Shown here: in pieces, positions 881 to 47,187 of the stretch
How the letters are laid out: each line of letters begins with the position of its first letter
Position numbering within the stretch: position 1 is the first letter of the stretch
Source: a virus
Taxonomy: Duplodnaviria > Caudoviricetes
IMG/VR virus record: IMGVR_UViG_3300035670_000287
Span: 1 to 52,635 of that record
Reading direction: 5' to 3' (one strand)
DNA length: 52,635 nucleotides
Notes under the pieces: model-generated
Databases searched by the model: none
What the model was told of the DNA's origin: nothing
The model's input: the letters and a program-made list of their open reading frames with translations, nothing else
Position numbers and translations under genes: made by a program

Positions 881-3574
881 ATGGGCAAGTTCACCCTAGA
901 TTTTATCGAAGCACTAACCAATAGAGTTGCTGGCAACGACGAGAAAAAAAAGAGAGTAGCCAGTACTATTAACGATTTTATTGGTGGGGTGGACAGAACC
1001 GTAAATCAGCCAAAAAAAATGCTAGGTAATACTGTACTTGACCTGTCAATTAGACCAGTCGCTCAACAAACAGCAAGGGCACAACACGCTATATATTCCA
1101 AGCAAGGAGACGACGCTCATCGAGGCTCAGATACCGCCTATATCCCCCAGAACTCTATCGAGAAGTTTATTATGGGCAATGAACCCGTTAAGGCATGGGG
1201 AGGAAAAGGCAATACCCAGAAGAAAGGTATGTCTGACTTTTTACAGTCGTCTTTGGGCGTTGATAGTAAATATGCTGATGACATTGCCTATCCGCTAGTG
1301 ATTGCTGGTGCTGGGTTGGACTTTCTGCCTGGTGGAGGGAAGAAAAAGGGAGCCCAAAAAGCTCTAGGGGCAGCCGATGATATGGTAGATATAATAAAGG
1401 TAATTAAAAAGAGATTCCCAGATGTGACTGATGATGTAGCCGAACAACTAGCCAGAAAGTATGCTCCCAAAGCCGATGAAGTGGTAGAAACCGCAGGTAA
1501 GCTCCCCCAACCTACCAAGGGGGCTAAGAGTATAGAACCAGAAATAGGAAACACGGTTAAAACTAAACCAGGGATACTGGGAGATGGAGAATATAAAGTA
1601 GTTAAAAAAAATGGAGACACTTATACGATAGTTGGCTTATCAGAAAAAGGTAATCTCAAAAAAACTGCGTTTGATGTTTCCAAAGATGATATCGACGTAA
1701 CCATAGGGGCTAAAGTAGATGAAGTGGCGGGAACTGACCCAGAGAAAATCCTCGCAGAAGCTATTAGAAAAGCTAAACCAGTGGCTCAAGAGACAGAGGA
1801 GCTCCGTAAGGTAGAAAAAGGGACAAGGGCTGGTAGAGCGGAAGATATTTTAGATAGCAACCTATCAGGTAAAGAATTAGAAAGGGCTTTTAAGGGGTCG
1901 TTTAAGGGAGAATACGCCAAGAGACCAGACTTCAACCCCATTATAGATGAGATAGGAGAGGACACTGCCCAAACCCTAAAGGAAACAAGGATACTCAAGA
2001 ATGAAGCCTTACAACAATTTGAAAAACTAAACGCCCTAAACGCCTTTGATAAGGTTATGGATGGACATAACCCCAATGAGAGCGAGCTTTATATACTAGA
2101 AAAGGCCTTTGGAGAGGCGTTCAATGAGCTTCCAGCAGCAAAAGAAATTGATAAAAAACTAAAAAAGTTTGTATCGGTGGTAAATTTTGGTAAAGCGTTC
2201 ACGACATCATTTGATATGTCCTCTTTCAGGCAGGGCGTATTTGCGTTATCTGGTCATCCCACAAGAATACCTGGATTTTTAGCCGATAACTTTAAGGGCT
2301 GGGGGCTAGGGAAGGGCGAACAAAACCTACAAGCGGCCGCTGACTCTTGGAAAAAATTAGAAAACTATAATCTTGTAAGAAAATATGTCGATATTACAGG
2401 CTTCGGCGGAAAAACAGAAGAGGCGTTTTATGGAGCAAACCTTGCAGAACAAGTTCCTCTGGCTGGAAAGCTCGTAAGAGCCTCTGAGAGGGCTTATTCT
2501 TTGTCGCTAACCAATTTAAGGGTTAGGCTGGCGGATAGAACGTTTGCCGATATGAAGAAAGCAGGCCTAGACCCAATAAGGGATGCCAAATATTTTGAAG
2601 CCGTGGGCGATACGTTTAACTCTGGAACTGGAAGAGGAAAATTCGGAGAACCATTCGCTAGAATTATAGGGGCATCTGGCAAGAAAGGCATGAACGAAGC
2701 TCAAACAAAAAGACTGGCAAGTAATATTGAAAAACTTGCTAACACTGGGCTCTTCTCATCAAAACTTATTGCCGCCAGGATGTCTCATTTCAACCCCAAG
2801 AACTATCGACCGTCAAAAGTAGGAAAGTTTGCCGCCAAGGAAAAGTGGCAGGAGCTTCTCGGTTTTGTCGGGTTTACTGCTGGATTAATAGCAACGGTTA
2901 AAATAATAAAAGAAACAACAGACGCAGATATTGACGTAGAGACAGACGTGAGAAGTTCTGATTTTGGAAAAGTAAAAATTAATGGCACTACAAGGCTTGA
3001 CTTTACTGGAGGAGAGGCTGCCTACGCCAGGGTTTTAGGACAATTTATTAGCGGTAGTAAAAAAGATTCAGAGAGTGGAGAAATAGAGAAGTTGGGAGTG
3101 GGATATAAACCACAAACAAGACCAGGGGTTGTTGGAAATTTCCTTAGAGGAAAAACATCTCCAGCCCTAGGAAGTGCCCTTAATCTGGCGTACGGTAATA
3201 ATGTGGTTGGCGAGCCCTCTTATTTAGGAAAAGAATTTACGGGATTTTTCTCCCCCCTATACGCAAAAGATATCGGAGACCTCTTCATAAAAGAGGGATT
3301 TTCTCCAGACCTCATCCCTCTGTTGATGGCTGGTTTCTTCGGAGCAGGAGTACAAACTTATGGGAGTGACGAAGAACAGGCAAGTAGGGAAGACGCTAAA
3401 GACAAGCAGGAAGACTACCAAGAGGCAAGCTGGAGAGACGAACCGCTAGGCAAGGCATCATATAACGCCTTTGGTGATATGTGGTTTACTGAGGATATGA
3501 TAGACAAACTAAAGGGTCGTTCTAGCAAGCCAGCTGGCGGGTATGGTTCGATTAATGAGTTTCTAGGTAAATAA
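881..3574 (+). CDS. Large internal virion/DNA-ejection protein (897 aa)
   Basis: Size, G/A/K-rich composition and last position in the ejection block, as in podoviruses. Confidence 0.65.
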   Translation: MGKFTLDFIEALTNRVAGNDEKKKRVASTINDFIGGVDRTVNQPKKMLGNTVLDLSIRPVAQQTARAQHAIYSKQGDDAHRGSDTAYIPQNSIEKFIMGNEPVKAWGGKGNTQKKGMSDFLQSSLGVDSKYADDIAYPLVIAGAGLDFLPGGGKKKGAQKALGAADDMVDIIKVIKKRFPDVTDDVAEQLARKYAPKADEVVETAGKLPQPTKGAKSIEPEIGNTVKTKPGILGDGEYKVVKKNGDTYTIVGLSEKGNLKKTAFDVSKDDIDVTIGAKVDEVAGTDPEKILAEAIRKAKPVAQETEELRKVEKGTRAGRAEDILDSNLSGKELERAFKGSFKGEYAKRPDFNPIIDEIGEDTAQTLKETRILKNEALQQFEKLNALNAFDKVMDGHNPNESELYILEKAFGEAFNELPAAKEIDKKLKKFVSVVNFGKAFTTSFDMSSFRQGVFALSGHPTRIPGFLADNFKGWGLGKGEQNLQAAADSWKKLENYNLVRKYVDITGFGGKTEEAFYGANLAEQVPLAGKLVRASERAYSLSLTNLRVRLADRTFADMKKAGLDPIRDAKYFEAVGDTFNSGTGRGKFGEPFARIIGASGKKGMNEAQTKRLASNIEKLANTGLFSSKLIAARMSHFNPKNYRPSKVGKFAAKEKWQELLGFVGFTAGLIATVKIIKETTDADIDVETDVRSSDFGKVKINGTTRLDFTGGEAAYARVLGQFISGSKKDSESGEIEKLGVGYKPQTRPGVVGNFLRGKTSPALGSALNLAYGNNVVGEPSYLGKEFTGFFSPLYAKDIGDLFIKEGFSPDLIPLLMAGFFGAGVQTYGSDEEQASREDAKDKQEDYQEASWRDEPLGKASYNAFGDMWFTEDMIDKLKGRSSKPAGGYGSINEFLGK

Positions 3575-3575
3575 A

Positions 3576-3842
3576 ATGAAAGAATTATCAAAACAAATAA
3601 CAAATGCGGAAGCGAGGTTTGCAGTGCTAGAGACACAGATGGCTCAGAACGAAGTCGACCACCAGACTATCTTAACCGAAGTCAGGCACAACTGTGCCGA
3701 GAACTCTAAGAGGTTCGACAAGTTAGAGGAATTGATTACGACAGCAGCCGAGAGCAAGGCTAACAAGTGGGTCGAATGGTTCGCCAAGTCCCTGATAGCG
3801 GCCATGCTTACGATAGCCGTCTACATGTTAAACAGATTATAG
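3576..3842 (+). CDS. Holin-like protein (coiled coil plus C-terminal TM helix)
   Basis: C-terminal hydrophobic helix; directly upstream of the endolysin. Confidence 0.5.
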   Translation: MKELSKQITNAEARFAVLETQMAQNEVDHQTILTEVRHNCAENSKRFDKLEELITTAAESKANKWVEWFAKSLIAAMLTIAVYMLNRL

Positions 3843-10293: not shown

Positions 10294-10815
10294 ATGAAGC
10301 AATGCCATAAATGCTTGCGACTACTGCCTTTAGAAAGTTTTCACAAACATCCCGCTACCAAAGATAAGCTAGATGGTCGCTGTAAACAGTGTAAGAAAGA
10401 AGGACAACACAAGCTCCCTAAAATATGCGAGCATTGTGGTAAAAGTTTTTTAGCCGCCAAACCAATACCAAAAGTTCGTAGAGGAAGATTCTGTTCAAAA
10501 AAATGTCAATTTTCTTTTATGACAGGGGATAAAAGCCATCGATGGAGGGGCGGTAAAAAAATAAGCAAAGGTGGGTATATTTATATTTTTCAGAGAGAAC
10601 ACCCACATAGTACCAAAAACGGATATGTTCTCGAGCATAGATTATTGATGGAAAAGAAGATTGGTAGATATTTAACCAAAGAAGAAGTCGTCCATCACAT
10701 AAACAGCAATACGAAAGATAATAGGATAGAGAATTTGGAGCTGTTCTCCAATCAAGGAGAGCATTTAAGTTATCATAATACTAATGGGAGAACGCCTATG
10801 ACCCTAATTGGATGA
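10294..10815 (+). CDS. HNH homing endonuclease with N-terminal zinc fingers
   Basis: EHRLLME...EVVHHIN...DNRIENL; several CxxC. Confidence 0.9.
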   Translation: MKQCHKCLRLLPLESFHKHPATKDKLDGRCKQCKKEGQHKLPKICEHCGKSFLAAKPIPKVRRGRFCSKKCQFSFMTGDKSHRWRGGKKISKGGYIYIFQREHPHSTKNGYVLEHRLLMEKKIGRYLTKEEVVHHINSNTKDNRIENLELFSNQGEHLSYHNTNGRTPMTLIG

Positions 10816-13213: not shown

Positions 13214-13492
13214 TAGTGGCTTTGTTTATCAGGCTCATACTGCCGAAGCAGGTTTTACATGGGCGCTTTCCACCCTTTTGCCAGACAGGAATAAACTTGG
13301 TCGGCTTTCCTCTTATTTGTTGGGCTTTATCGGTATCCCTTTCGAGAAGCTCGTAAACTTAGTCGAGCGCCAACTGAACTCGATACCCTATCCGATACCA
13401 CTTTTTAATGTTCTGTTCTCAAGAGAGAGAAAACTTATTTAACTTGTGAGCTAACCTTTAATTAATTATTTGTTAGCACTTTCTCTCTCTTT
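13214..13492 (-). ncRNA. Structured 5' leader or candidate ncRNA
   Basis: Multiple stems including a UUCG hairpin; no convincing ORF; downstream of a promoter. Confidence 0.4.
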
Positions 13493-13516: not shown

Positions 13517-13545
13517 ATGCTACCACACTATTGCCCACTTGTCAA
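13517..13545 (-). promoter_or_regulatory. Sigma70-type promoter, near copy of 10164-10192
   Basis: TTGACA-agtgggcaatagtgtgg-TAGCAT. Confidence 0.7.
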
Positions 13546-13727
13546 TAAGATTATGACAGGTCAGGGGGGAAGCCACTTACTGCTTCCCCACAAGAGGTTA
13601 TCGAGCTTAATAGCTCGTAGCGAGAGGCAAGGCTTCCCCACCTTTTAATCCGAGAGTCGAACTCGGCTACCTCTCTCTATGAGCTATCAATTATTAGACA
13701 CCCATTTGGCAAGGTCAATTTACTTTT

Positions 13728-14015
13728 CTATTTACTCAACCCGAAATTATAATCCTCGTTCATATTTTCAGCTATCTCGTACCAATTAACCTCGTCTACG
13801 AAAGCACTTGCCCAACCACCAACGAGTCTATTGGTTTCATTTTCAAAACCATTTTGGTCAATAAAGTCCAAAGTATAGTTTTTAAGATAATCCGACAACC
13901 CTACAATATCGCCAAAAGACTCTTTTGCGTTGTCTATGCTATCGCCAAAACCATCAAACAACTCAAGATTTACTCGCCAAGTGGCGTAATTTGTCCAACC
14001 ATTATATTTTTCCAT
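13728..14015 (-). CDS. Early-region phage protein (YNGWTNYATW motif); cassette D
   Basis: GAGG RBS; enclosed by stem D. Confidence 0.8.
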   Translation of the reverse strand: MEKYNGWTNYATWRVNLELFDGFGDSIDNAKESFGDIVGLSDYLKNYTLDFIDQNGFENETNRLVGGWASAFVDEVNWYEIAENMNEDYNFGLSK

Positions 14016-14098
14016 TTCTAACCTCTTTTACTTTCTGACCTCGCCAAATTGATGTCTAATCCCTATCACTTCACAAGTCGCAAGGCGTCATTTACTCT

Positions 14099-14284
14099 TT
14101 AATATTGTTCGTAAGTACTTTTTCTGATAGCTTCCGACTTCTTTAAACCCTCATTGATTACATATAAGTAAGCCAAAAAGAGAATAAAGCATATAATCAC
14201 AGCTAAGCAACTTCTCTTTGTCTGATTCAAGCGTTGTCGTCTCTTTCGTCTTTTGATAGCTTCTTTGGTGTGTTTTGTTAGCAT
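14099..14284 (-). CDS. Small basic membrane-anchored protein; cassette C
   Basis: K/R-rich N-terminus and one TM helix. Confidence 0.6.
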   Translation of the reverse strand: MLTKHTKEAIKRRKRRQRLNQTKRSCLAVIICFILFLAYLYVINEGLKKSEAIRKSTYEQY

Positions 14285-14484
14285 TTTATGACTTCCATTT
14301 CTCGATTAAACTCTACCAAGATAAATGGTTGCCCACACTCACAGATTAAATCTGTTTCGTCTGACGACATAAAATAATCTGCCTTGTTTGCTGAATATTC
14401 AACCATACAATTTTCACAAAACAAAACCTCTTTTGTCCTTGTTTTATCAAGTATTTGGTCTGATAGGTCTTTAATCTTTACCAT
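14278..14484 (-). CDS. Zinc-ribbon protein; cassette C
   Basis: CENC...YSANKADYF...CECG. Confidence 0.7.
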   Translation of the reverse strand: MVKIKDLSDQILDKTRTKEVLFCENCMVEYSANKADYFMSSDETDLICECGQPFILVEFNREMEVIKC

Positions 14485-14569
14485 AGTATAACCCCCTGTT
14501 TTCTGACACCTCGCAACCTGTAAAGTGATAGTTTCACAAGCCCAAGTACAAGAGCAAGGTATTAATTCT

Positions 14570-14710
14570 TTATTCCTCTATCACTTTTAATTCTTTATTT
14601 AAGAACTTTGTAACTATTTCAAACCTATAACAACCTTTACAAATGTCTTGCCTCTCGCTTTCGTTGTTTGTATCGTCAACCTCGCCACATATTTTACATT
14701 TGAATAACAT
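14570..14710 (-). CDS. Zinc-finger microprotein (46 aa, not in ORF track); cassette B
   Basis: GAGG RBS; MLFKCKICG...CKGC. Confidence 0.7.
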   Translation of the reverse strand: MLFKCKICGEVDDTNNESERQDICKGCYRFEIVTKFLNKELKVIEE

Positions 14711-14798
14711 AATAACCTCTTTTCTAACCCTTGCCCTTGTATTTGGACTTGTGATTACACACTAGCAAGTATAAGAGCAAGGCGAAGTTAATTATTCT

Positions 14799-14978
14799 TT
14801 AAGCAGTTCTTATCTCGTATTCTCTCTCTATATACTCTCTAAACTTATTCTCGTCAAATCTATCATTTTTTGCTTTTAGTAAGTCACAGAAATCCTGTAT
14901 AATAGTTTCAACCTTGATACCTCTAACTCTCGCACAAGCCAAAATAGTAGCAATTAATACATAATCCTTTTTAGTCAT
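14799..14978 (-). CDS. Small early-region phage protein (59 aa, not in ORF track); cassette A
   Basis: MTKKDYVLIA...NDRFDENKF. Confidence 0.7.
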   Translation of the reverse strand: MTKKDYVLIATILACARVRGIKVETIIQDFCDLLKAKNDRFDENKFREYIEREYEIRTA

Positions 14979-15091
14979 TTCGATACTCGCTTTCTGCCTT
15001 GCCCTTGTATCTGCTAGTGTGTTTTGTTAGATAAGCTCTTATACTGCCCTGAGAGTCATAGCTCTATGGCTGGTTTTTAGCTCTAACCTAT

Positions 15092-15120
15092 TTGTCAAGG
15101 TGCTTGATTTGTGCTATAAT
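15092..15120 (+). promoter_or_regulatory. Promoter for terS
   Basis: TTGTCA-17 nt-TATAAT with TG extension. Confidence 0.7.
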
Positions 15121-15138
15121 TGATTTACTGATAATCTA

Positions 15139-15166
15139 AGTATAACACTACTTGACAAGTATACAA
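15139..15166 (-). promoter_or_regulatory. Promoter for the cassette array, with palindrome TACTTG-A-CAAGTA (15149-15161)
   Basis: TTGTAT-16 nt-TATACT with TG extension. Confidence 0.55.
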
Positions 15167-15252
15167 GAAAATTAATTTGAAGCTAAAAATGACACTTTTC
15201 CACAATTAGCCGAATAAGTGTTTTACAAAATGAAAGTGAGTTTTCCACAACC

Positions 15253-17449: not shown

Positions 17450-17602
17450 ATGGAGAAACAAATGGAAAGAACCCCCTGCGAAGTATACTCAAGAGTGTGC
17501 GGTTATTACCGCCCAGTCAAGGACTGGAACCCCGCTAAGCAACAAGAATTTGAAGATAGAAAAGACTTTGAATGGAACGACAAGAAATTATCGAAGCCTT
17601 AG
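17450..17602 (+). CDS. Stand-alone NrdD C-terminal glycyl-radical-loop microprotein (46-50 aa, not in ORF track)
   Basis: CEVYSRVCGYYRPVKDWNPAKQQEFEDR; GGAG RBS before ATG 17462. Confidence 0.8.
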   Translation: MEKQMERTPCEVYSRVCGYYRPVKDWNPAKQQEFEDRKDFEWNDKKLSKP

Positions 17603-19179
17603 AGAAGGCCAAACAACTCCAGCTACTAACCTTAGCGGAGACAGCAAAGAAAGACCTGTTCTTTTTGGCTCATGAAATCCTCGACTACAAGTTAATGACC
17701 GAATCTGTCCACCGCCCGCTAACGGCGGTGTTGCAGTCTCTGGTCGAACCTAACTCTAAATGGCTGGAGATGATACCCAAAGAGTCCACCCACTTCTCAG
17801 AGCGGGACAACGATATCTTTAACAACAACATCTCCATAGAGGACTTGAATAAAAAGTTTAGACTGATTCTGATGCCCCGTGGTACTTTTAAATCCACCAT
17901 CTCCACCATCTCCTTCCCGCTACAGCTGTTACTAATCAACCCAGATATAAGAATATTGATAGATTCAGAGACCTTTGATAAGTCACGGGCGTTTATGGCT
18001 GAGATTAGAGGCCACCTGGAATCCAATGAGAAGTACCGAGCCCTCTTTAAAGCCCTCCATGGCATCTACCCAGATGAGAGAAAGGGTGTCGATAAGTGGG
18101 GAGACACGGAAATCAACGTCGCCGCCCGTAAGAAGAAAGCCAAAGAACCTAATCTTAGTTGTTCTGGTGTTGGGGTAACCAAGGTAGGGATGCACTACGA
18201 TGTAGTGATGTCCGACGATTTACATTCCGAGAAGAATGTAACCAATAAAGAGCAGATACAACAGGTAATCGACCACTATAAGCTCAACCTCTCCCTACTG
18301 GAGCCGACAGGATTCATGACGGTTATCGGCACGAGGTGGGACTATCTCGACTTATACCAGTATATTATCGATAATGAACGCCACAGGTTCTGTGTTTACG
18401 CCCAACAAGCGGAAAAACCCGACGGAACTCTGTTATTCCCCGAAAGATTGACCAAACAATTCCTGACAGACCAGAGGATGTCGCAGGGCTCATCGATTTA
18501 TTCTATGCAGTACCAGAATTTACCGATAGATGACGAAACTGCCACCTTTAAATACTCCCAAATGCGTAAAGTAGACAACGATTGGGTCAAAAACAAGCCG
18601 ATTAACTGGTTTTTGATGTGCGACCCCGCTATTTCGCAGGCTTCAACCGCCGATGACACCGCTTTTGTGGTTGCTGGCTTCGATATGGAGCGAAATATCT
18701 ACGTCAAAGACATAATTTACGGCAAATTCATGCCATCAGAGATAGTAGACCAGATATTCTACCTCTATGAGATGCATAAACCGAAAATGGTCGGGGTAGA
18801 GAGCGTTGCTTTCCAGAAAACCCTGATATATTCCATCAATGACAAAATGAAAGAGCGAAACTGGGCATTTTCCATAAAAGAGATTAAAAGAAAGAACGCT
18901 CACTCTAAAGAAGACAGGATAAAATCTCTCCAACCCTATTATGAGAATGGCCGTGTTTTCCACCTTAGAACCTGCAAAAACATCGATGAATTGGAGTACC
19001 AACTCATACACTTCCCAAAAGGACGAAAAGATGATATAATAGATGCACTTGCTGACTTGTTGGAGATAGGTTTCCCCCCAGATAACCGCCAACGACACAA
19101 TACAGATGAAGACCGAGCACGAAAAAGGAAAATGTTTAAAATATTAAGCCAGCCGAGAAGTAAAATTACTGGTTACTAG
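17572..19179 (+). CDS. terL: Terminase large subunit
   Basis: PRGTFKST Walker A, SDDL Walker B, GTRW, nuclease CDPA..DD and KDDIIDAL. Confidence 0.95.
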   Translation: MERQEIIEALEKAKQLQLLTLAETAKKDLFFLAHEILDYKLMTESVHRPLTAVLQSLVEPNSKWLEMIPKESTHFSERDNDIFNNNISIEDLNKKFRLILMPRGTFKSTISTISFPLQLLLINPDIRILIDSETFDKSRAFMAEIRGHLESNEKYRALFKALHGIYPDERKGVDKWGDTEINVAARKKKAKEPNLSCSGVGVTKVGMHYDVVMSDDLHSEKNVTNKEQIQQVIDHYKLNLSLLEPTGFMTVIGTRWDYLDLYQYIIDNERHRFCVYAQQAEKPDGTLLFPERLTKQFLTDQRMSQGSSIYSMQYQNLPIDDETATFKYSQMRKVDNDWVKNKPINWFLMCDPAISQASTADDTAFVVAGFDMERNIYVKDIIYGKFMPSEIVDQIFYLYEMHKPKMVGVESVAFQKTLIYSINDKMKERNWAFSIKEIKRKNAHSKEDRIKSLQPYYENGRVFHLRTCKNIDELEYQLIHFPKGRKDDIIDALADLLEIGFPPDNRQRHNTDEDRARKRKMFKILSQPRSKITGY

Positions 19180-24322: not shown

Positions 24323-24372
24323 AATCAACTAAATGGGTAGGGCTCGTTAGTACTGCAAGGACTAACTACTGT

Positions 24373-24696
24373 ATGGACAATAGACCAAAATGTACAAATG
24401 AAGGATGTAATAATCCCGCAACCAAAAAAAGAACTAGAAAGGACGGAATCCCTGTTTATAGAAAACTATGTTCTGGTTGTCTGCGGAGAAAGTATGGCAT
24501 GCCTTCAAATTCAAAGGGTAGAGCAAAAGCGAAGTTACCAAACAAATGTATTATTTGTGGATGGGATAAAGCACCTTGCGATATTCATAGAATAAAATTT
24601 GGAAAAGATGGTGGTAAGTATACAAAAGGGAATGTTGTAAAAATATGTCCTAATTGCCACCGACAAATACATTTCGGTTCGTTGTCCATACAGTAA
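24373..24696 (+). CDS. HNH endonuclease enclosed by a 14-bp inverted repeat
   Basis: CIICG..CDIHRI..GGKY..GNV..CPNCH. Confidence 0.85.
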   Translation: MDNRPKCTNEGCNNPATKKRTRKDGIPVYRKLCSGCLRRKYGMPSNSKGRAKAKLPNKCIICGWDKAPCDIHRIKFGKDGGKYTKGNVVKICPNCHRQIHFGSLSIQ

Positions 24697-24727
24697 CTCG
24701 CTGAGCCCCTCCTAACATGGAGTATAA

Positions 24728-40115: not shown

Positions 40116-40433
40116 ATGGAAGATTTTATTGTCAAAGAATCAAACATAGACACGAATGGTTTGTTCGCCAATCGTGATTATTTACCAGACGAACTGGTAA
40201 TGAGCTTTCAAGGTAACCCACCGAAGATGATTTACATAAATCATTCGTGTGAGCCTTCTTGCTATACTATTGAGCCAGTCAAGGACGACTACCAGACCCA
40301 TACCCTTCATGCTGGAAAATGGGGACTAAAGGAAGGCCAAGAGATTACTTATGACTACAGGCTTGGGCAAGACTTAGATTATTTTAACAATACTATCAGT
40401 GATAATTGTAACTGCGAGAAATGTCGTGGATAA
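40116..40433 (+). CDS. SET-domain protein with post-SET cysteines
   Basis: GLFA, YINHSCEPS, GQEITYDY, CNC..CRG. Confidence 0.85.
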   Translation: MEDFIVKESNIDTNGLFANRDYLPDELVMSFQGNPPKMIYINHSCEPSCYTIEPVKDDYQTHTLHAGKWGLKEGQEITYDYRLGQDLDYFNNTISDNCNCEKCRG

Positions 40434-43400
40434 AACTTACAAAGTCATTGGTAACAGCATGTCGTCAGATAATATTGTCGATGGCGACTTAGTCACGGTC
40501 TCTAACCGTCAGCCAAAAGACGGAGATATCGTAGTTGCCGAGTGGAATGACGAATTTATTGTAAAAACCTATCGTGATTCAGCCCTATACTGTGGTGAGT
40601 ATTTATTTACAGACAGTGATTTTGTGGTTGTAGGTGTGGTGGATGAAGTTATTAAAGATAGGTCTAGTAGGTTTTATATAGAGAGCGTTCATGGTAAAGC
40701 GACAACTTCTACATCGTCAACCTCTAGCTCTACCTCTCAGTCTTTCAGTACCAGCTCCACCTCTACCTCTACCACCACAGCTCCTCCCACCGTGGCTCTC
40801 GGTTCTCCTGCCGATAATGCTACAATTTCTGACACTACGCCAGACCTAACGTTTACTGGCACATCCAACGGAGGAGCACAGGTTAAATACCAAGTGCAGG
40901 TGGCATCAACACCCTTTTTCGAAGTTCTAGATAGTTATAGCGACACTAGAGATTACGCCGTATCACTCAAGATTACAACTGGCGACACGGAGGCAGGTCA
41001 GTCATTCCACGCAGTAGGAACGCTGGGTAGCTGTAAATTCTATCTTGGAAAATGGGGGACAATTTCGGGGAATATCTATGCAAAGCTATATGCACTGTCT
41101 GGGGCTTATGGTGGCGGAGATGATGTCCCTACCGGTGCAGCCTTGGCAACATCAGACGCTCTCGATGTGTCAGATTTTACAACAACCATGACAGAAAAAA
41201 CATTTACATTTTCTGGAGCAAATCAATATGCGATGAATGGAGATTACGTAATCGCTGTATCTTCGTCTATCGGAGACGATAGTAATTATGTGAATATCGG
41301 CTCTGCCGTAACGACACCAACACATACAGGCAATCCCTGCACATATAAAAGCCCGACTTGGACGGCGTCAAATGTCCACGATTTTCTGTTTTCTGTTCTG
41401 TCAACAGGGGCAACGCCCCTCATCGACGCCCTCTCCACCAACCTGACAGGTTTCACTACCGACGCTGATGGTTTCTATAACTCAGGAGTAGAGACTACTT
41501 ATACGGTTCAATCTGCTCTCTCCGCAGGTACTTACTACTGGAGAGTTAGGGCAGCCGAATCTGCTGGTACTTGGGGGGCGTGGAGTCCAGGGGACTCTAC
41601 TTTAGGGTATGACCATTTTCATCTGGAGACAGCCACCACTTCTACAAGCAGCACCTCAAGCAGTACCTCAATTTCTACATCTTCTACAAGTTCCTCTACT
41701 TCAAGGTCTGTATCTACTAGCAGCACATCCTCTAGTACTAGCAGTTCTATTAGTACATCCAGCACCAGCTCTAGCACCTCTAGTTCAACTTCTGTTTCTA
41801 CCTCTAGTACTAGCAGCAGTACTTCAATATCTACTAGTTCTACCTCTCAATCAGAAACAACCTCAACTTCATCGACCAGCAGCAGTACCTCAATTTCGAC
41901 ATCCAGTACTTCCGAATCAACATCTTCATCAATTTCTACAAGCTCTACATCAGAGTCAACTTCCAGCTCAACTAGTTCTACTAGCTCTTCTACCTCAACA
42001 TCAATCTCAACATCCAGTACCTCATCGAGCACCTCTAGCTCTTCATCTTCATCTACTTCAACGACCACTGCTCCTCCAGGATGGTACAATGCCTCATGGC
42101 CATACAGATTTAAAGTAACCGTTTTAGCCTCTAAGGTAGATGCCGACCTGACAGATTTTCCTGTTTACTTTGACCTAAACGATGCCCCTGCAGGCTTCCA
42201 CACCTATTGTAATCAAACAGACGCCAGGGATATCAGGGTTACAACCTCAGACCAGCAGACCGAAGTCCCAAGAGAGGTGGTTTTCTATGACTCCGCTACC
42301 GACACTGGAGAACTTCACTTTAAGGGCAATATTGATGGAGACGACAATACTGATTTTTATGTTTACTATGGTAATGCCGATGCTACTGAGCCAGCCGAAG
42401 ATGCTACTTATGGCCGAGAGGCGACTTGGAATAGTAATTATAAGCTAGTCAAGCATTTAAACGATATTACCACATCGACTACACTTGATAGTACTTCTAG
42501 CGACCAGGATGGAACAAAGAAGGGTGCTGGCGAACCAGCCGTAGCTACCGACCTAATTGGCAAGTGCCAATCATTTGACGGGTCAGATGATTATATTTCT
42601 GGAACAAATGGGACAAGTTTAACAAGCACGGCCATTACAATTCAAGCGTGGGTCAATTTTACAGACTTTACCAAAGCAAACCCCAGAGTTATTGAAGTCA
42701 GAGATGGAACATATTCTGTTCAGATAATCCGAGACGGAGGTTCACAAAAGTTTGTTACCAAGCATAGTGAATGGCAGTCAGCTATATCGGGGACACAGTG
42801 GAACATTCCGTCTACTGGAACCGACTACATGATTCACGCCGTTTGGGATGCATCTAATGACACTACAGTCTTTTACTGTAATGGTGTCGCTCAGGAAGGT
42901 GCGGCTAATAATAACATCGGGGTCGGAAACCAGGCGAGTAAGTATTATATCGGTATGAGAAGTGACCTTGTCGACACATCACAGCTAAAGGGTGTCGTTG
43001 ACGAGGTTCGTCTTTCTACAACCGCCCTATCTTCCACATGGGTTTCTACTGAATATAATAACCAATCAGACCCAAGTGCATTTTATCAAGTTGGTACGGC
43101 TGAATCAGGGACCACTACTTCCACTTCCTCCACCAGCTCTTCTACATCACTCTCTACTTCCAGCACTAGTTCGAGCACCTCCAGTTCCACCTCTATCAGC
43201 ACTAGTTCTACTTCGAGCTCAACCAGTACAAGCATTTCTACTTCTTCAACCAGTAGCTCAACTTCTAGTTCTATCAGTACATCAACGTCTTCTACTAGTT
43301 CCAGTACCAGCTCCTCGACCTCCATAAGTACCTCCAGTACTTCTCAGTCTACATCTACCAGTATTTCAACATCGTCCACGTCCTCCTCTACCAGTAGTTC

Positions 43401-46400
43401 TACCTCTATTTCTACCAGCTCAACGTCTCAATCTACGAGTACGTCCCAATCAACCTCCACCTCTAGTACTTCACAATCTACCAGCACCTCTCAGAGTACG
43501 TCAACATCATCAACTAGCCAAAGTACCTCTACTTCAATCTCTACTTCATCGACTTCCCAAAGCACCAGCACGAGCCAGTCAACGTCAACCAGTTCTACTT
43601 CCCAATCGACTAGCACATCTCAATCTACAAGTACCAGTTCAACCTCGCAAAGTACTTCCACAAGTCAGAGCACATCTACATCCAGCACCTCACAAAGCAC
43701 TAGCACTTCAATAAGTACAAGCTCTACCTCACAGAGTACGAGTACAAGCATATCTACTTCCTCCACGTCTCAATCAACATCTACGTCTATCTCTACCTCA
43801 AGCACAAGTCAGTCGACAAGTACGTCTATTTCCACTTCCAGTACGTCACAGTCTACCAGCCAGTCTACATCCACCAGTATCTCGACTAGCAGTACCTCCA
43901 GTTCTACCTCACAGTCTACGACCTCATCTACCTCTACCTCCACGACGACTGTCCCCTGGTACTATGCCGATACTATTACAGTAAATACTGGCTCTATCAA
44001 CTCAGGGATAATAGATGATACTTACAGCGATAACGGCACAAGACTAGTCTTAAATGAAGTAACCCCTGCCGCTCCTGGATTTGACTATGACTTTATCTTT
44101 GGTACTGGCGGGCAAACAGTCCCTGACGGTATTTATAAGCTCACCTTTAATGGATACTATGATGGTAACCCCGCCCATAATGTAAAACTCCAACAGTATA
44201 AGTTTACTGCTCCTGCTGGGTGGGTTAATGTCACGGCCAACGCTCAGGACTTCCCAGATAATTCCAGTGACCAATCTTATGAGTTCCCACTACTATCTCC
44301 GACATCTGACTACATTAGTGGTGGAGAGATACGCTTAAAGATAATCCATACCTCTAACGGCTCGGCTGGACATTATATGAACATAGACTATATGAAGCTG
44401 GAGACCTACTTTACTACCTCTACTTCATCTACTTCTAGCTCCACATCTACCAGCTCCACAAGTAGCTCTACTTCAACCTCTGTATCTACCAGCACATCAT
44501 CCACTAGCTCTTCTACTTCCACTAGTATCAGCACTTCTTCTACCAGCTCCTCCACCAGCTCGTCTATCTCTACTTCTTCAACAAGCCAGAGTACTTCCAC
44601 CAGTCGCTCTACAAGTACCTCCTCGACATCACAGAGCACTTCTACGAGCATTTCTACCTCAAGTACCAGTCAGAGTACCTCCACGAGTCAATCCACTAGT
44701 ACCTCTAGTACTTCCCAGTCGACTAGCACTAGTCAGTCAACGAGCACTTCTTCAACTTCCAGCTCCACTTCTATATCTACAAGCTCTACTTCCCAGAGTA
44801 CATCTGTCTCTACTAGCTCAAGCACGTCTACCACGCTTTCTATGACCACTTCGACTAGTTCGACATCCTCGTCAACGTCTCAATCTACATCAACTTCGAC
44901 AACGATACCTCCCGCCTGCGTTGTTGACCAACAACAGACAACAGCCCTTGCCGATGCCTCGTACCAATGGCCAGTGGGTAGCGTTACTGGGTTGTGGGAA
45001 GAGGGGGGACAATCCTTTACCCCAAGCATAACAGCGAACCTTTGTTATGTTAACTTCGCATTTAGTAGAGACGGCAACCCTACCGACAATGTCGTCTGCC
45101 AGCTCTGGTCATCTGATTCTGGGGATACTCCTCAATCTCTTTTAGCAACGGCAGATAACTCTCATAACGTAACGTCCTTTCCTGTCGCCCCCAACTATGG
45201 GATTTATGGGTTTACCTTTACTGGGGCAAATTCTATCCAACTGCTTTCAGGGAGCAAGTATGCTTTCGTTATCAGTCGCACTGGGGGTGATGACGGAACC
45301 AATCATGTCCACCTTGTTGGTAGCGATACTGACACTTATTCACGGGGTAAAAGGATTAAAAAGGGGGTTACTTGGGCTGCCAGTTCTCTAAGCGACCTAT
45401 ACTTCAACGAACACTACGACAACACCACCACGACATCTACGTCGACATCATCGACTAGCACTTCGACTAGTCTATCTACCAGCTCGACAAGTTCGTCAAC
45501 GTCCCAAAGTACATCTGTCTCAACAAGCAGTACTAGCCAGAGTACAAGTAACAGCACTTCTAGTACCTCATCATCTACTTCGCAGAGTGTTTCCACCTCT
45601 AGTACAAGCCAGAGCACATCTACCAGCACGAGCATATCTACCAGCTCGACCTCACAGAGCACAAGCACTAGCGTATCTACATCTTCAACGTCACAGTCAA
45701 CCTCTAGCTCTATTAGCACTAGCAGTACGTCTTCTTCGACCTCAATCTCTACATCCGCATCCACCTCTTCAACCTCGTCTAGTACTTCTCAGTCAACCTC
45801 TATCTCTACTAGCTCCACCAGCTCTTCAACTTCCCAGTCCACATCTTCCTCTACATCTATATCTACCTCAAGCACCAGTAGCTCTACCACCCAGAGTTGG
45901 ACAACATCTACATCTAGTACGAGCAGTAGTACTTCTAGTACCTCAGAGAGCACTTCAACAAGCACATCAACATCCTTGAGCACATCTTCTACAAGCTCAA
46001 GCACAAGTTCATCAACTTCTACATCTACTACTACCGTCCCAGCAACATGCGTAATAGACCAAGAAAACACAACCTCTGGGTCAGGGGCTACTCTTACTGT
46101 TCCAAGATTCCAATCTTTTACGCCCTCTGTTAATGCTACTATTTGTAATATTGCTCTTTATATGTTTGGCGGCGGTACTTCTGTCGGAGATACAAGCGTT
46201 TCTATTTATACAGTATCTGGTGGATTGCCAAGCACGCTGATAGAAACATCCCCCTTTGTTCAAAATAATAATGGCATTGGGGCAAGCACAAGATGGATTA
46301 GTTTCCCGTTCTCATCAACTTCAGTTCTTTATTCTGGAGTCCTTTATGCCATAGTTATAGAGTCAAGCCTTCCAACATCAGCCGCTGGAGTTGCTGCCTC

Positions 46401-47187
46401 TTCTGGAGACACATATACTAGCGGGGTATCTGGTATTTATACCTTTGGGTCATGGCGGTTAGGGAGTGCGGGAGTTGACCTTACCTTTAAAGAATACTAC
46501 GAGAATACAACCCTCTTTACAACCTCAACTTCAAGTACTTCTTCTAGTACATCGAGTACTTCTAGCTCAACTTCTACATCGTCCACTTCGTCAAGCACAT
46601 CGGTTTCTATAAGCACCAGCTCCAGTACGACAATAAGCTGGACGACATCTACAAGCTCAACCAGTAGCTCAACCTCAACTAGCGTTAGTACATCCAGTAC
46701 CTCCCAGAGCACATCTACTTCTATATCAACGAGTTCAACAAGTTCATCCACGTCTACCAGTATCAGCACCAGCTCTACTAGTCAGTCAACTTCTACCAGT
46801 ATCTCCACGAGTTCGACCTCCAGTTCTACTTCTACGAGTATCTCGACATCCAGCACATCCAGCTCGACGTCTAGCTCAACTTCTCTCTCAACCAGCAGTA
46901 CTTCATCTAGTACCTCAACTTCGATTTCTACTTCAACGACAATCTCCACTTCCAGTACTTCTAGTTCCACTAGCTCTACGAGTACCTCAATCTCTACCTC
47001 CACCACCCTACCGCCAGACCCGAAGAAGGATAAGAAGCCTAAGTTCCACGTCGTTAGACAAAGAGAGATGCTTAACATTAAGACGTTCAACCCGAAGTTT
47101 TATGTAGTCAAAGAAAACAAGAGATTCAAGACCGTTAAAGATAATAAATCAGTAGACATTAATAACGATAAACCGAGGATGAGCTAA
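40399..47187 (+). CDS. Giant mucin-like putative virion adhesin: S24 peptidase-like N-terminus, six Ser/Thr tracts, DUF2341 plus LamG-like and other beta-sandwich domains (start possibly GTG 40426)
   Basis: VIGNSM..DGD..VK; WYNASWPYR..LTDFPV..YVYYGN; GVVDEVRLS..EYNNQ; three QSF-type domains. Confidence 0.8.
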   Translation: MIIVTARNVVDKTYKVIGNSMSSDNIVDGDLVTVSNRQPKDGDIVVAEWNDEFIVKTYRDSALYCGEYLFTDSDFVVVGVVDEVIKDRSSRFYIESVHGKATTSTSSTSSSTSQSFSTSSTSTSTTTAPPTVALGSPADNATISDTTPDLTFTGTSNGGAQVKYQVQVASTPFFEVLDSYSDTRDYAVSLKITTGDTEAGQSFHAVGTLGSCKFYLGKWGTISGNIYAKLYALSGAYGGGDDVPTGAALATSDALDVSDFTTTMTEKTFTFSGANQYAMNGDYVIAVSSSIGDDSNYVNIGSAVTTPTHTGNPCTYKSPTWTASNVHDFLFSVLSTGATPLIDALSTNLTGFTTDADGFYNSGVETTYTVQSALSAGTYYWRVRAAESAGTWGAWSPGDSTLGYDHFHLETATTSTSSTSSSTSISTSSTSSSTSRSVSTSSTSSSTSSSISTSSTSSSTSSSTSVSTSSTSSSTSISTSSTSQSETTSTSSTSSSTSISTSSTSESTSSSISTSSTSESTSSSTSSTSSSTSTSISTSSTSSSTSSSSSSSTSTTTAPPGWYNASWPYRFKVTVLASKVDADLTDFPVYFDLNDAPAGFHTYCNQTDARDIRVTTSDQQTEVPREVVFYDSATDTGELHFKGNIDGDDNTDFYVYYGNADATEPAEDATYGREATWNSNYKLVKHLNDITTSTTLDSTSSDQDGTKKGAGEPAVATDLIGKCQSFDGSDDYISGTNGTSLTSTAITIQAWVNFTDFTKANPRVIEVRDGTYSVQIIRDGGSQKFVTKHSEWQSAISGTQWNIPSTGTDYMIHAVWDASNDTTVFYCNGVAQEGAANNNIGVGNQASKYYIGMRSDLVDTSQLKGVVDEVRLSTTALSSTWVSTEYNNQSDPSAFYQVGTAESGTTTSTSSTSSSTSLSTSSTSSSTSSSTSISTSSTSSSTSTSISTSSTSSSTSSSISTSTSSTSSSTSSSTSISTSSTSQSTSTSISTSSTSSSTSSSTSISTSSTSQSTSTSQSTSTSSTSQSTSTSQSTSTSSTSQSTSTSISTSSTSQSTSTSQSTSTSSTSQSTSTSQSTSTSSTSQSTSTSQSTSTSSTSQSTSTSISTSSTSQSTSTSISTSSTSQSTSTSISTSSTSQSTSTSISTSSTSQSTSQSTSTSISTSSTSSSTSQSTTSSTSTSTTTVPWYYADTITVNTGSINSGIIDDTYSDNGTRLVLNEVTPAAPGFDYDFIFGTGGQTVPDGIYKLTFNGYYDGNPAHNVKLQQYKFTAPAGWVNVTANAQDFPDNSSDQSYEFPLLSPTSDYISGGEIRLKIIHTSNGSAGHYMNIDYMKLETYFTTSTSSTSSSTSTSSTSSSTSTSVSTSTSSTSSSTSTSISTSSTSSSTSSSISTSSTSQSTSTSRSTSTSSTSQSTSTSISTSSTSQSTSTSQSTSTSSTSQSTSTSQSTSTSSTSSSTSISTSSTSQSTSVSTSSSTSTTLSMTTSTSSTSSSTSQSTSTSTTIPPACVVDQQQTTALADASYQWPVGSVTGLWEEGGQSFTPSITANLCYVNFAFSRDGNPTDNVVCQLWSSDSGDTPQSLLATADNSHNVTSFPVAPNYGIYGFTFTGANSIQLLSGSKYAFVISRTGGDDGTNHVHLVGSDTDTYSRGKRIKKGVTWAASSLSDLYFNEHYDNTTTTSTSTSSTSTSTSLSTSSTSSSTSQSTSVSTSSTSQSTSNSTSSTSSSTSQSVSTSSTSQSTSTSTSISTSSTSQSTSTSVSTSSTSQSTSSSISTSSTSSSTSISTSASTSSTSSSTSQSTSISTSSTSSSTSQSTSSSTSISTSSTSSSTTQSWTTSTSSTSSSTSSTSESTSTSTSTSLSTSSTSSSTSSSTSTSTTTVPATCVIDQENTTSGSGATLTVPRFQSFTPSVNATICNIALYMFGGGTSVGDTSVSIYTVSGGLPSTLIETSPFVQNNNGIGASTRWISFPFSSTSVLYSGVLYAIVIESSLPTSAAGVAASSGDTYTSGVSGIYTFGSWRLGSAGVDLTFKEYYENTTLFTTSTSSTSSSTSSTSSSTSTSSTSSSTSVSISTSSSTTISWTTSTSSTSSSTSTSVSTSSTSQSTSTSISTSSTSSSTSTSISTSSTSQSTSTSISTSSTSSSTSTSISTSSTSSSTSSSTSLSTSSTSSSTSTSISTSTTISTSSTSSSTSSTSTSISTSTTLPPDPKKDKKPKFHVVRQREMLNIKTFNPKFYVVKENKRFKTVKDNKSVDINNDKPRMS

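Follow-up and report, generated by a model that had tools for sequence, protein, structure and literature searches.

Long-range inverted repeats in tandem around small phage genes: candidate RNA clamps in a clade of uncultured phages

Introduction

Bacterial ribosomal RNA (rrn) operons yield precursor transcripts (pre-rRNA) in which several processing stalks stand in series, each of them cut by ribonuclease III (RNase III), and the known targets of this enzyme include helices of at least two turns whose strands lie more than 100 nt apart in the RNA. In phage T7 the early polycistronic RNA is cut into single messages by a host nuclease specific for double-stranded RNA (dsRNA), and the structure that remains stabilizes them. 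Here we describe a locus in IMG/VR virus record IMGVR_UViG_3300035670_000287, a complete virus record with direct terminal repeats that was analyzed over its whole length of 52,635 bp (the window). On its minus strand, within a 1.4-kb array, five inverted repeats (stems A to E) follow one another almost without a gap, and four of them enclose small genes. A unit closed by such a repeat is called a socket below, and what it encloses is called its cargo.

Several elements of this arrangement have precedents. RNase III of Bacillus subtilis cleaves long-range intramolecular mRNA duplexes (>100 nt) and leaves 2-nt 3' overhangs, according to the sections of PMC11780869 that deal with them. Pairing between the two untranslated regions (UTRs) of one message governs nuclease action or translation in the cases of hbs (PMC5737220) and icaR (PMC3868564), as set out in the relevant parts of those reports. 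The PeSL cassettes of T4-type phages are presented, where PMC2839356 describes their layout, as small non-essential open reading frames (ORFs) in conserved regulatory frames with apparent shuffling of the cargo.

Results

Five cognate stems in tandem

Among the 22 inverted pairs detected between positions 13400 and 15300, the five strongest are stems A to E (Table 1), the same five that a first-pass annotation of this DNA had singled out. Neighboring stems are always 2 nt apart, the spacers being AA, AA, GG and AA. The pairing counts of that annotation proved exact for A to D and approximately right for E, which pairs at 19 of 21 positions, or at 22 of 24 if extended. Read as minus-strand RNA, stem A has 23 Watson-Crick pairs, two G.U and two A.C over 27 positions; B has 23, two and one over 26; C has 23 Watson-Crick and five G.U pairs over 28; D has 22 and two, plus one other combination, over 25; and E has 18 Watson-Crick pairs, one G.U, one A.C and one other over 21.

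The stems far exceed chance expectation. A stem detector called five strong stems in the region compared with a mean of 0.006 in 500 dinucleotide shuffles, of which three contained one. When the minus strand was folded, as the annotation had suggested and here from 13570 to 15060, all five helices were present in both the minimum free energy (MFE) and the centroid structures, and the two halves of the array folded separately gave z scores of -6.45 (none of 100 shuffles as good) and -8.71 (none of 20). Every 5' arm pairs best with its own 3' arm; the best non-cognate combination reaches -26.8 kcal/mol. The outer parts of the arms are unique: apart from the paralogy of A and B, a search that allowed up to 6 mismatches located no second copy of any arm in the genome. 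These data support genuine, cognate-specific long-range helices around whole cistrons.

We considered whether the true elements might instead be local intergenic hairpins, each formed by a 3' arm and the next 5' arm in the manner of PeSL-like terminator and promoter modules, with the long-range pairing as a by-product. This is very improbable. The arms of A and B are 79% alike, so that the A|B junction can indeed fold locally (-19.3 kcal/mol), and one junction, 13718-13690, is promoter-like. However, the junction hairpins range from -19.3 to -10.9 kcal/mol against -25.7 to -45.9 kcal/mol for the cognate duplexes, a deficit of 15-30 kcal/mol, and the arms that meet at C|D and D|E are unrelated. 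No U tracts or terminator-like sites were found in the array, the number of promoter-like sites in the scanned region (29) does not stand out from that in shuffles (22.0, sd 5.0), and the long-range helices are the ones present in the MFE and centroid folds alike. The geometry resembles that of processing stalks and not that of the local hairpins of T7, as had been claimed. A PeSL-type promoter-terminator cassette was rejected for the lack of any terminator-like site, the single weak promoter-like junction and the weakness of the local hairpins.

The ORFs previously reported for the cassettes (59, 46, 68 plus 61, and 95 aa) were all confirmed from the ORF list. Ribosome-binding site (RBS), ORF and stop lie in the loops, with starts 17-20 nt past the 5' arms and stops 8-15 nt before the 3' arms; given the known size of the ribosome footprint, this spacing means that initiating and terminating ribosomes need not open the helix. 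In cassette C the two genes overlap at ATGCTAA. The 5' sides of the loops carry AGAAA followed by a Shine-Dalgarno sequence, and their 3' sides carry a TAAAGARTAAAT-like sequence past the stop. GCRAGG closes each 5' arm of A to D, and CCUUGC stands at, or no more than 5 nt from, the start of all five 3' arms, as the annotation had noted. GCAAGG is present at 21 sites in the genome, against 19.5 expected, and 7 of these 21 fall inside the array. As judged from the sequence, the complementarity links the two UTRs of the same cistron and lies outside the coding sequence, as it does in 5'/3' UTR pairing. A helix of about two turns or more (21-28 bp with 0-3 non-pairs) is formed from the flanks of the RNA that would be released, as in an RNase III stalk.

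The same layout in a clade of uncultured phages

Searches for relatives with single proteins (the helix-turn-helix (HTH) gene and the large terminase, TerL, in IMG/VR; TerL in metagenomes) returned no matches, and relatives were obtained via a TerL alignment only. Metagenomic TerL relatives with E <= 0.001 numbered 1072 among 8000 scored candidates, the best, P0001 on a 49-kb contig, being 82% identical. An alignment of 16 TerL relatives retrieved 74 IMG/VR loci, 5 genome loci and 71 metagenome loci, 41 of the last being new (related loci carry L numbers below). Stems were surveyed in 75 loci, of which 45 had at least 1.5 kb of sequence upstream of TerL. Strong long-range stems numbered 36 in 228 kb upstream of TerL and 10 in 623 kb downstream, an approximately 10-fold difference in density, and 18 loci (window included) had at least one strong stem upstream. 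Unrelated phage contigs, used as a control, gave 0.046 stem calls per kb, mostly repeated palindromes. The same layout recurs, with arms and cargo that are unrelated in sequence, among distant relatives (TerL identity about 40-75%) that form a large clade of uncultured phages with genomes of about 50 kb.

Of 18 distinct repeats examined in the relatives, 12 show tight spacing, in which the first start follows the 5' arm by at most 28 nt and the last stop precedes the 3' arm by at most 26 nt; four others enclose a complete ORF with one longer spacer. In L092 (TerL 44%) a TTGCAT-N16-TATAAT promoter is followed by two abutting cassettes. In L120 (TerL 41%) a promoter accompanies two gene cassettes, and a third stem, which abuts the second, surrounds 74 non-coding nt; in L152 one stem encloses two genes. 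Further cases are L086, L094, L104, L106, L108, L110/L111, L113, L127, L170, L175, L189 and L205. Abutting stems occur in L092 and L120 and, in weaker form, in L078. The cargo ORFs of different cassettes are mutually unrelated, and none of the 10 tested has a Pfam match. No homologue of the cassette proteins was found in the related loci, with the exception of one D-like match in L011, an unrelated contig. Homologues of gene D are present in 26 other viral contigs without comparable bracketing stems, so the stem does not travel with gene D.

Several sequence features of the relatives are recorded here in their own right. The stem of L082 contains GGTTGCGAGGT, which is also in the 5' arm of window stem C. 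L078 has, on the minus strand at 3016-3748, about 650 nt past a strong promoter without an evident ORF, where two abutting long-range stems (3726-3706/3388-3370 and 3369-3348/3066-3045) lie within an outer stem. TGGCAA is found in one 3' arm each of L086 (82-104), L092 (3117-3141), L110 (2074-2099), L120 (978-1001) and L127 (6596-6619), as a rule facing a stretch that pairs imperfectly; in the window CCTTGC takes its place. Its presence in five relatives could mark a shared ancient socket or a recognition motif. A sigma-54 reading of TGGCAA was rejected, since no TTGC stands at the right spacing by eye. TIGR arrays were ruled out as well, the loops here holding ORFs with an RBS, and the TTCCCTAGTC... 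repeat of L092, L096 and L101 lies inside a 272-aa gene and is not of the stem kind. A search of IMG/VR with the socket as a DNA pattern (stop-side UTR module, CCTTGC, gap, GCRAGG) returned 50 stretches, all unrelated and judged to be chance; about half were copies of one sequence on many contigs. Some close relatives of TerL, namely P0002 and P0008, are longer and contain intein/homing-endonuclease domains (PF14528, PF14890, PF13403), which shows that the terminase gene of the clade hosts inteins.

Maintained pairing and a modest strand bias

Comparison of the paralogous stems A and B revealed maintained complementarity. Of 26 aligned pairs, 18 are identical, five have changed on both sides and still pair, one has changed on one side and still pairs, and one pairs in B but not in A; the two stems also have an A.C mismatch and a G.U pair in common, each at the same position. 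Over the five stems, 18 positions are not Watson-Crick pairs. Twelve of them are G.U on the minus strand, four are G.U on the plus strand only (A.C on the minus strand) and two are neither. The first-pass annotation had stated that arm differences are mostly G.U-compatible, and on the coding strand only; the first half of that statement holds (12 of 18), whereas the four plus-strand cases contradict the second. The summed arm energy is -183.5 kcal/mol on the minus strand versus -154.1 kcal/mol on the plus strand, a difference carried by C and D.

For the clade as a whole we used 19 gene-bracketing repeats, picked by a rule that treats G.T and A.C alike. Over these 19 cassettes, G.U on the coding strand outnumbered G.U on the other strand by 36:17 (p = 0.013). 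The coding strand is purine-rich; measured against composition nulls of 0.543 and 0.472, the excess gave one-sided p values of 0.031 and 0.002. The G.U/A.C evidence suggests selection on the transcribed strand and is modest in strength. Selection for single-strand pairing, as previously proposed, is consistent with the direction of these ratios, although the effect is weaker than was implied.

Proposed cutting by host RNase III

We propose, with confidence that stands about level with our doubt, that the stems are clamps between the 5' and 3' ends of cistrons in an early transcript, that they are cut by host RNase III, and that they are at the same time conserved sockets with swappable cargo. 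The array would be the part nearest the promoter in a leftward transcript that is presumably early, and each cistron unit would be closed by a 21-28 bp helix of its own 5' and 3' untranslated flanks. Formed in RNA, these helices would be substrates of host RNase III, an enzyme to which such long and nearly perfect duplexes are suited. If every stem were cut in staggered fashion, each cistron would be freed as a separate mRNA whose ends would stay paired in the motif-bearing inner half and, by analogy with T7 early RNA, this end pairing would shield the message from 5'-end-dependent and 3'-exonucleolytic decay. The stems would also insulate neighboring cistrons from one another. With conserved arms and UTRs around cargo that is not conserved, the sockets could act as fixed frames for the exchange of small early genes by recombination. 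As an alternative outcome, cutting could lead to faster shut-off of early messages. The phage has no match to PF14622 (RNase III), which was found in 9 of 14 genomes in the control search.

The stems might also form in RNA and remain uncut. They would then be insulators, exonuclease blocks or protein-binding sites (the GCRAGG/CCUUGC helix) that tune translation or decay of each cistron in an intact polycistronic RNA. We regard this as rather unlikely, even though the structural evidence applies to it equally and the motif conserved at the inner end of every stem suggests specific recognition over recognition of generic dsRNA. The part of PMC5737220 on hbs describes a 14-bp pairing of 5' and 3' UTRs that modulates the access of RNase Y and is not an RNase III site, a precedent for this possibility. 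On the other hand, near-perfect duplexes of 25-28 bp exceed what an exonuclease block needs and would be expected to be RNase III substrates, judging from the sections of PMC11780869 on such duplexes. In addition, no RNA-binding protein family was recognized among the window proteins scanned, and the inner motif is not common to the relatives, whose 3' arms often have TGGCAA.

Two more specific suggestions of the first-pass annotation are poorly supported. The ACCU/AGGU duplex preferred by Mini-III is complete in only one of the five stems (D), with ACCU alone in B and AGGU opposite GCCU in C, which speaks against Mini-III specificity for the stems as a set. Ligation of the cleaved cassette RNAs into circular mRNAs is extremely improbable. 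The one point in its favor is the geometry, in which the stem brings both ends together. Against it, the phage was found to encode no RNA ligase family, the stems contain no evident bulge-helix-bulge-like motif, and, from the chemistry of RNase III, its products would end on opposite strands of a helix terminus instead of at a sealable nick.

A number of observations weigh against RNase III-cut clamps under selection in RNA. In DNA, an inverted repeat pairs as well on one strand as on the other, so that most of the evidence also fits an origin at the DNA level. The strand asymmetry is modest, at 11:3 (p = 0.057) in the window alone (A to D) and 25:14 (p = 0.11) in the relatives alone; base composition alone predicts part of it, the plus strand gives slightly greater stability for stems A and E, and L108 runs opposite to the trend (G.U 1:3). 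Because the cargo has no homologues in related loci and no orthologous array was available, classical covariation can be scored only between A and B. In the arms of L113 and L110, the one orthologous socket pair found, compared by hand, three one-sided changes keep pairing, two break it, and there are no double compensations. Two of the 18 repeats (L095 and L082) bracket no gene, and in the closest relatives with upstream sequence, L078 (74%) and L082 (60%), the long-range stems are weaker or nested and surround leader RNA that is apparently non-coding. Finally, the five genome loci are labeled with five unrelated taxa and point to no host.

Exchange of cargo within conserved frames

The loci L113 and L110 have in common a 5' arm (95% over 21 nt), a 5' UTR with RBS (88% over 34 nt), and a 3' UTR with 3' arm and the sequence beyond (70% over 142 nt), while the enclosed ORFs do not align. 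The cargo of L113 consists of a 69-aa and a 50-aa gene, and that of L110 of an extra hairpin and a 66-aa gene; L110 also has one more upstream cassette, which is missing from L113. This pair supports cargo exchange in a conserved frame and says little on structure. The exchangeable cassettes of the first-pass annotation thereby receive partial support, from homologous arms and UTRs around non-homologous cargo. L158 is 99.6% identical to L078, with no differences in the arms, and so carries no covariation information.

Two side observations concern these frames. Between promoter and cassettes, L110 (2347-2401) and L113 (5895-5948, both minus strand) have a conserved leader (GGGGTGRGCGAAAGTCA...CCACGATTAG...), an element that may be a structured non-coding RNA. 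The repeats of L108 (713-1025) and L205 (1191-1522) have similar arms (14 of the first 16 bases, by eye) around unrelated ORFs on opposite strands; the stem of L108 pairs better on the strand opposite its ORF.

Elsewhere in the window, a 107-aa HNH gene (24373-24696, plus strand) lies between the capsid gene and the next gene and is missing in all relatives. Its 32-bp inverted repeat (24364-24395/24667-24698) covers its start and stop. Within the region 24323-24727, the gene with its repeat splits a hairpin, GGGCTC...GAGCCC, located behind the capsid gene; L083, L079, L081 and L082 have this hairpin intact at the same place. In RNA the 32-bp repeat would reunite the split hairpin halves.

An origin of this kind could account for the array itself if the repeats were a DNA-level feature with no present role in RNA. 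They would then be scars or agents of cassette insertion, with genes placed in the loops of pre-existing intergenic hairpins, or with units bounded by terminal inverted repeats (TIRs) of their own. We consider this unlikely. Cargo that differs within conserved arms, the extra L110 cassette, the HNH gene with its repeat in the capsid hairpin loop of the same genome, the arms of L108 and L205 with their oppositely oriented cargo, and empty stems that look like unfilled hairpins (E, the third of L120 and the first of L113) would all be in keeping with it. However, the arms are unique to each cassette, with no other copy in the genome, and the spacers do not amount to target duplications that match on the two sides of a unit. 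Searches for recombinases of transposase, serine or tyrosine type found none, Pfam scans showing two HNH genes only. Scars free of selection would be expected to decay, whereas five compensated pairs distinguish A from B, and neither the coding-strand G.U excess nor the regular RBS and stop spacing is expected of a DNA element. Together these points argue that there is a reason for which the repeats persist. A DNA-level origin is nevertheless compatible with function in RNA and may have been its source; it may be the history of the repeats and not their function.

Specific mobile elements were tried and rejected. No recombinase or integrase able to act on the repeats was found in the phage by searches with PF00239 and PF00589. 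In an integron gene cassette a local attC would be expected, whereas here repeats flank the ORF, and PF00589 had no matches (control, 14 of 14 genomes). A TIR transposon or miniature inverted-repeat transposable element (MITE) does not suit arms that are unique at up to 6 mismatches, or flanking dinucleotides that differ between the two sides of C and of D. An invertible segment of the Hin/Gin type was set aside because PF00239 had no matches (control, 13 of 14 genomes). The 170-aa protein neighboring the array has a sub-threshold HTH_7 match only.

Genomic setting

No DNA match to the window was found among GenBank phages, nor any to the array searched as DNA. TerL, at 17572-19179, is at most 31% identical to any GenBank phage terminase. 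The products recognized in the window are the terminase, a P22-type portal, a capsid protein, a CHAP lysin, a glycosyltransferase, two HNH endonucleases and an exonuclease. The second HNH gene (10294-10815, plus strand) lies amid a minus-strand gene block, and a 2262-aa ORF (40399-47187, plus strand) has an N-terminal Peptidase_S24-like segment. The array region consists of small genes without known families on the minus strand, leading away from a divergent promoter-like region at about 15,090-15,170, and it is their position beside this region that makes the genes presumably early.

Table 1. Features of the array region in window coordinates (energies in kcal/mol; genes A to D are named after their cassettes).
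Feature	Position	Strand	Description
Promoter-like, putative start of leftward unit	15131..15166	-	TTGTCA-16-GATTAT (15158-15131), promoter scan 9/12
Alternative reading of the same promoter-like region (putative)	15166-15139	-	TTGTAT-16-TGtTATACT, by eye
Cassette A	14757..15022	-	5' arm 15022-14996, 3' arm 14783-14757; 25/27 paired; -37.1
Gene A, 59 aa	14799..14978	-	No known family; start 17 nt past 5' arm, stop 15 nt before 3' arm
Cassette B	14534..14754	-	5' arm 14754-14729, 3' arm 14559-14534; 25/26 paired; -39.6; arms paralogous to A
Gene B, 46 aa	14570..14710	-	CxxC...CxxC in translation; start 18 nt past 5' arm, stop 10 nt before 3' arm
Cassette C	14063..14531	-	5' arm 14531-14504, 3' arm 14090-14063; 28/28 paired; -45.9 on minus versus -26.5 on plus strand
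Gene C1, 68 aa	14278..14484	-	Cysteine-rich; start 19 nt past 5' arm; sub-threshold zf-UBR match only
Gene C2, 61 aa	14099..14284	-	Hydrophobic stretch; stop 8 nt before 3' arm
Cassette D	13693..14060	-	5' arm 14060-14036, 3' arm 13717-13693; 24/25 paired; -35.2 on minus versus -27.2 on plus strand
Gene D, 95 aa	13728..14015	-	Weak DUF7249 and phrog_871 matches; start 20 nt past 5' arm, stop 10 nt before 3' arm
Element E	13607..13690	-	5' arm 13690-13670, 3' arm 13627-13607; 42-nt loop, no ORF; -25.7
Hairpin in E loop	13650..13666	-	CCGAG-UUCGACU-CUCGG; tRNA T-arm likeness by eye only
Hairpin after array	13566..13589	-	GGGGAAGC-8 nt-GCUUCCCC, without U tract; absent from the list of terminator-like sites
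Second promoter-like site	13517..13545	-	TTGACA-17-TAGCAT with TG, scan 10/12

The hairpin after stem E, together with the second promoter-like site, makes the array look like a transcription unit of its own, and that site would start the next leftward unit. GGGGAAGC is present twice on the minus strand, in the E loop (13632-13639) and as the 5' half of the post-array hairpin (13582-13589). Both copies are able to pair with the single GCUUCCCC (13566-13573), which allows for alternative structures. The MFE fold also contains, on the minus strand, a weak outer helix between the leader before A (15023-15060) and the sequence after E (13570-13606) that encloses the whole array. Since the 3' part of the E loop resembles the 3' UTR module of A to D, we read E as an empty socket. 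The Rfam search gave nothing over threshold, its one match being a chance-level snoRNA (E = 0.88), and ARAGORN found no tRNA or tmRNA; neither reports anything at E, and a tRNA-like element was for these reasons not adopted.

Discussion

The widest form of our proposal is a tentative one, in which we place distinctly less confidence than in host RNase III cutting at the array itself. An uncultured phage clade would carry its first, fast-evolving genes in modular, tandem, abutting RNA sockets that host RNase III turns into separate mRNAs with both ends paired; genes would be swapped while clamp and UTRs stay fixed, and the same principle would fold the HNH gene out of the capsid message. This would amount to a natural system of operon punctuation and cassette exchange distinct from T7-type hairpins, PeSLs and integrons.

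If true, the array would be a compact natural way to cut an early polycistronic RNA into individually protected and insulated messages, a result for which synthetic biology adds ribozymes or nuclease sites. It would also supply a structural marker, independent of sequence, by which the earliest genes could be picked out in uncultured phages; such genes are likely to act in host takeover or against defence and usually have no recognizable family. Long-range mRNA duplexes as RNase III targets would be extended from bacteria to viruses. A conserved frame with variable cargo offers a concrete model for the gain and exchange of small, family-less phage genes.

Of the systems described so far, the stalks of pre-rRNA come close to the array in that flanks pair across hundreds of nt into a helix of at least two turns, with several stalks per transcript. 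The array, known from sequence alone, differs in enclosing small protein-coding cistrons, with RBS and stop in the loop, and in spacers of 2 nt. With T7 early RNA it would have the proposed role in common, the punctuation of an early polycistronic phage RNA into single messages; the T7 sites are local intergenic hairpins, whereas the array genes lie inside a helix of their own flanks and both ends of each product would stay paired.

The long-range RNase III sites of B. subtilis are likewise mRNA duplexes over more than 100 nt, but those treated in the relevant sections of PMC11780869 are on individual cellular mRNAs and not in tandem arrays that bracket every cistron. The hbs pairing, as given in the corresponding part of PMC5737220, comprises 14 bp in a single cellular gene, in contrast to the serial 21-28 bp helices with uncovered RBS seen here. 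PeSLs resemble the array as small variable-region ORFs framed by conserved modules; according to the description of their layout in PMC2839356, their frames are direct repeats with a promoter and a local terminator stem-loop, whereas those of the array are inverted, unique to each cassette and without such signatures. In the literature searched, we found no description of tandem abutting stems that each bracket a phage early cistron. Long-range RNase III stalks, 5'/3' UTR pairing and conserved frames around variable phage ORFs are already known, and what would be new, as the sequence suggests, is their union in a tandem abutting series.

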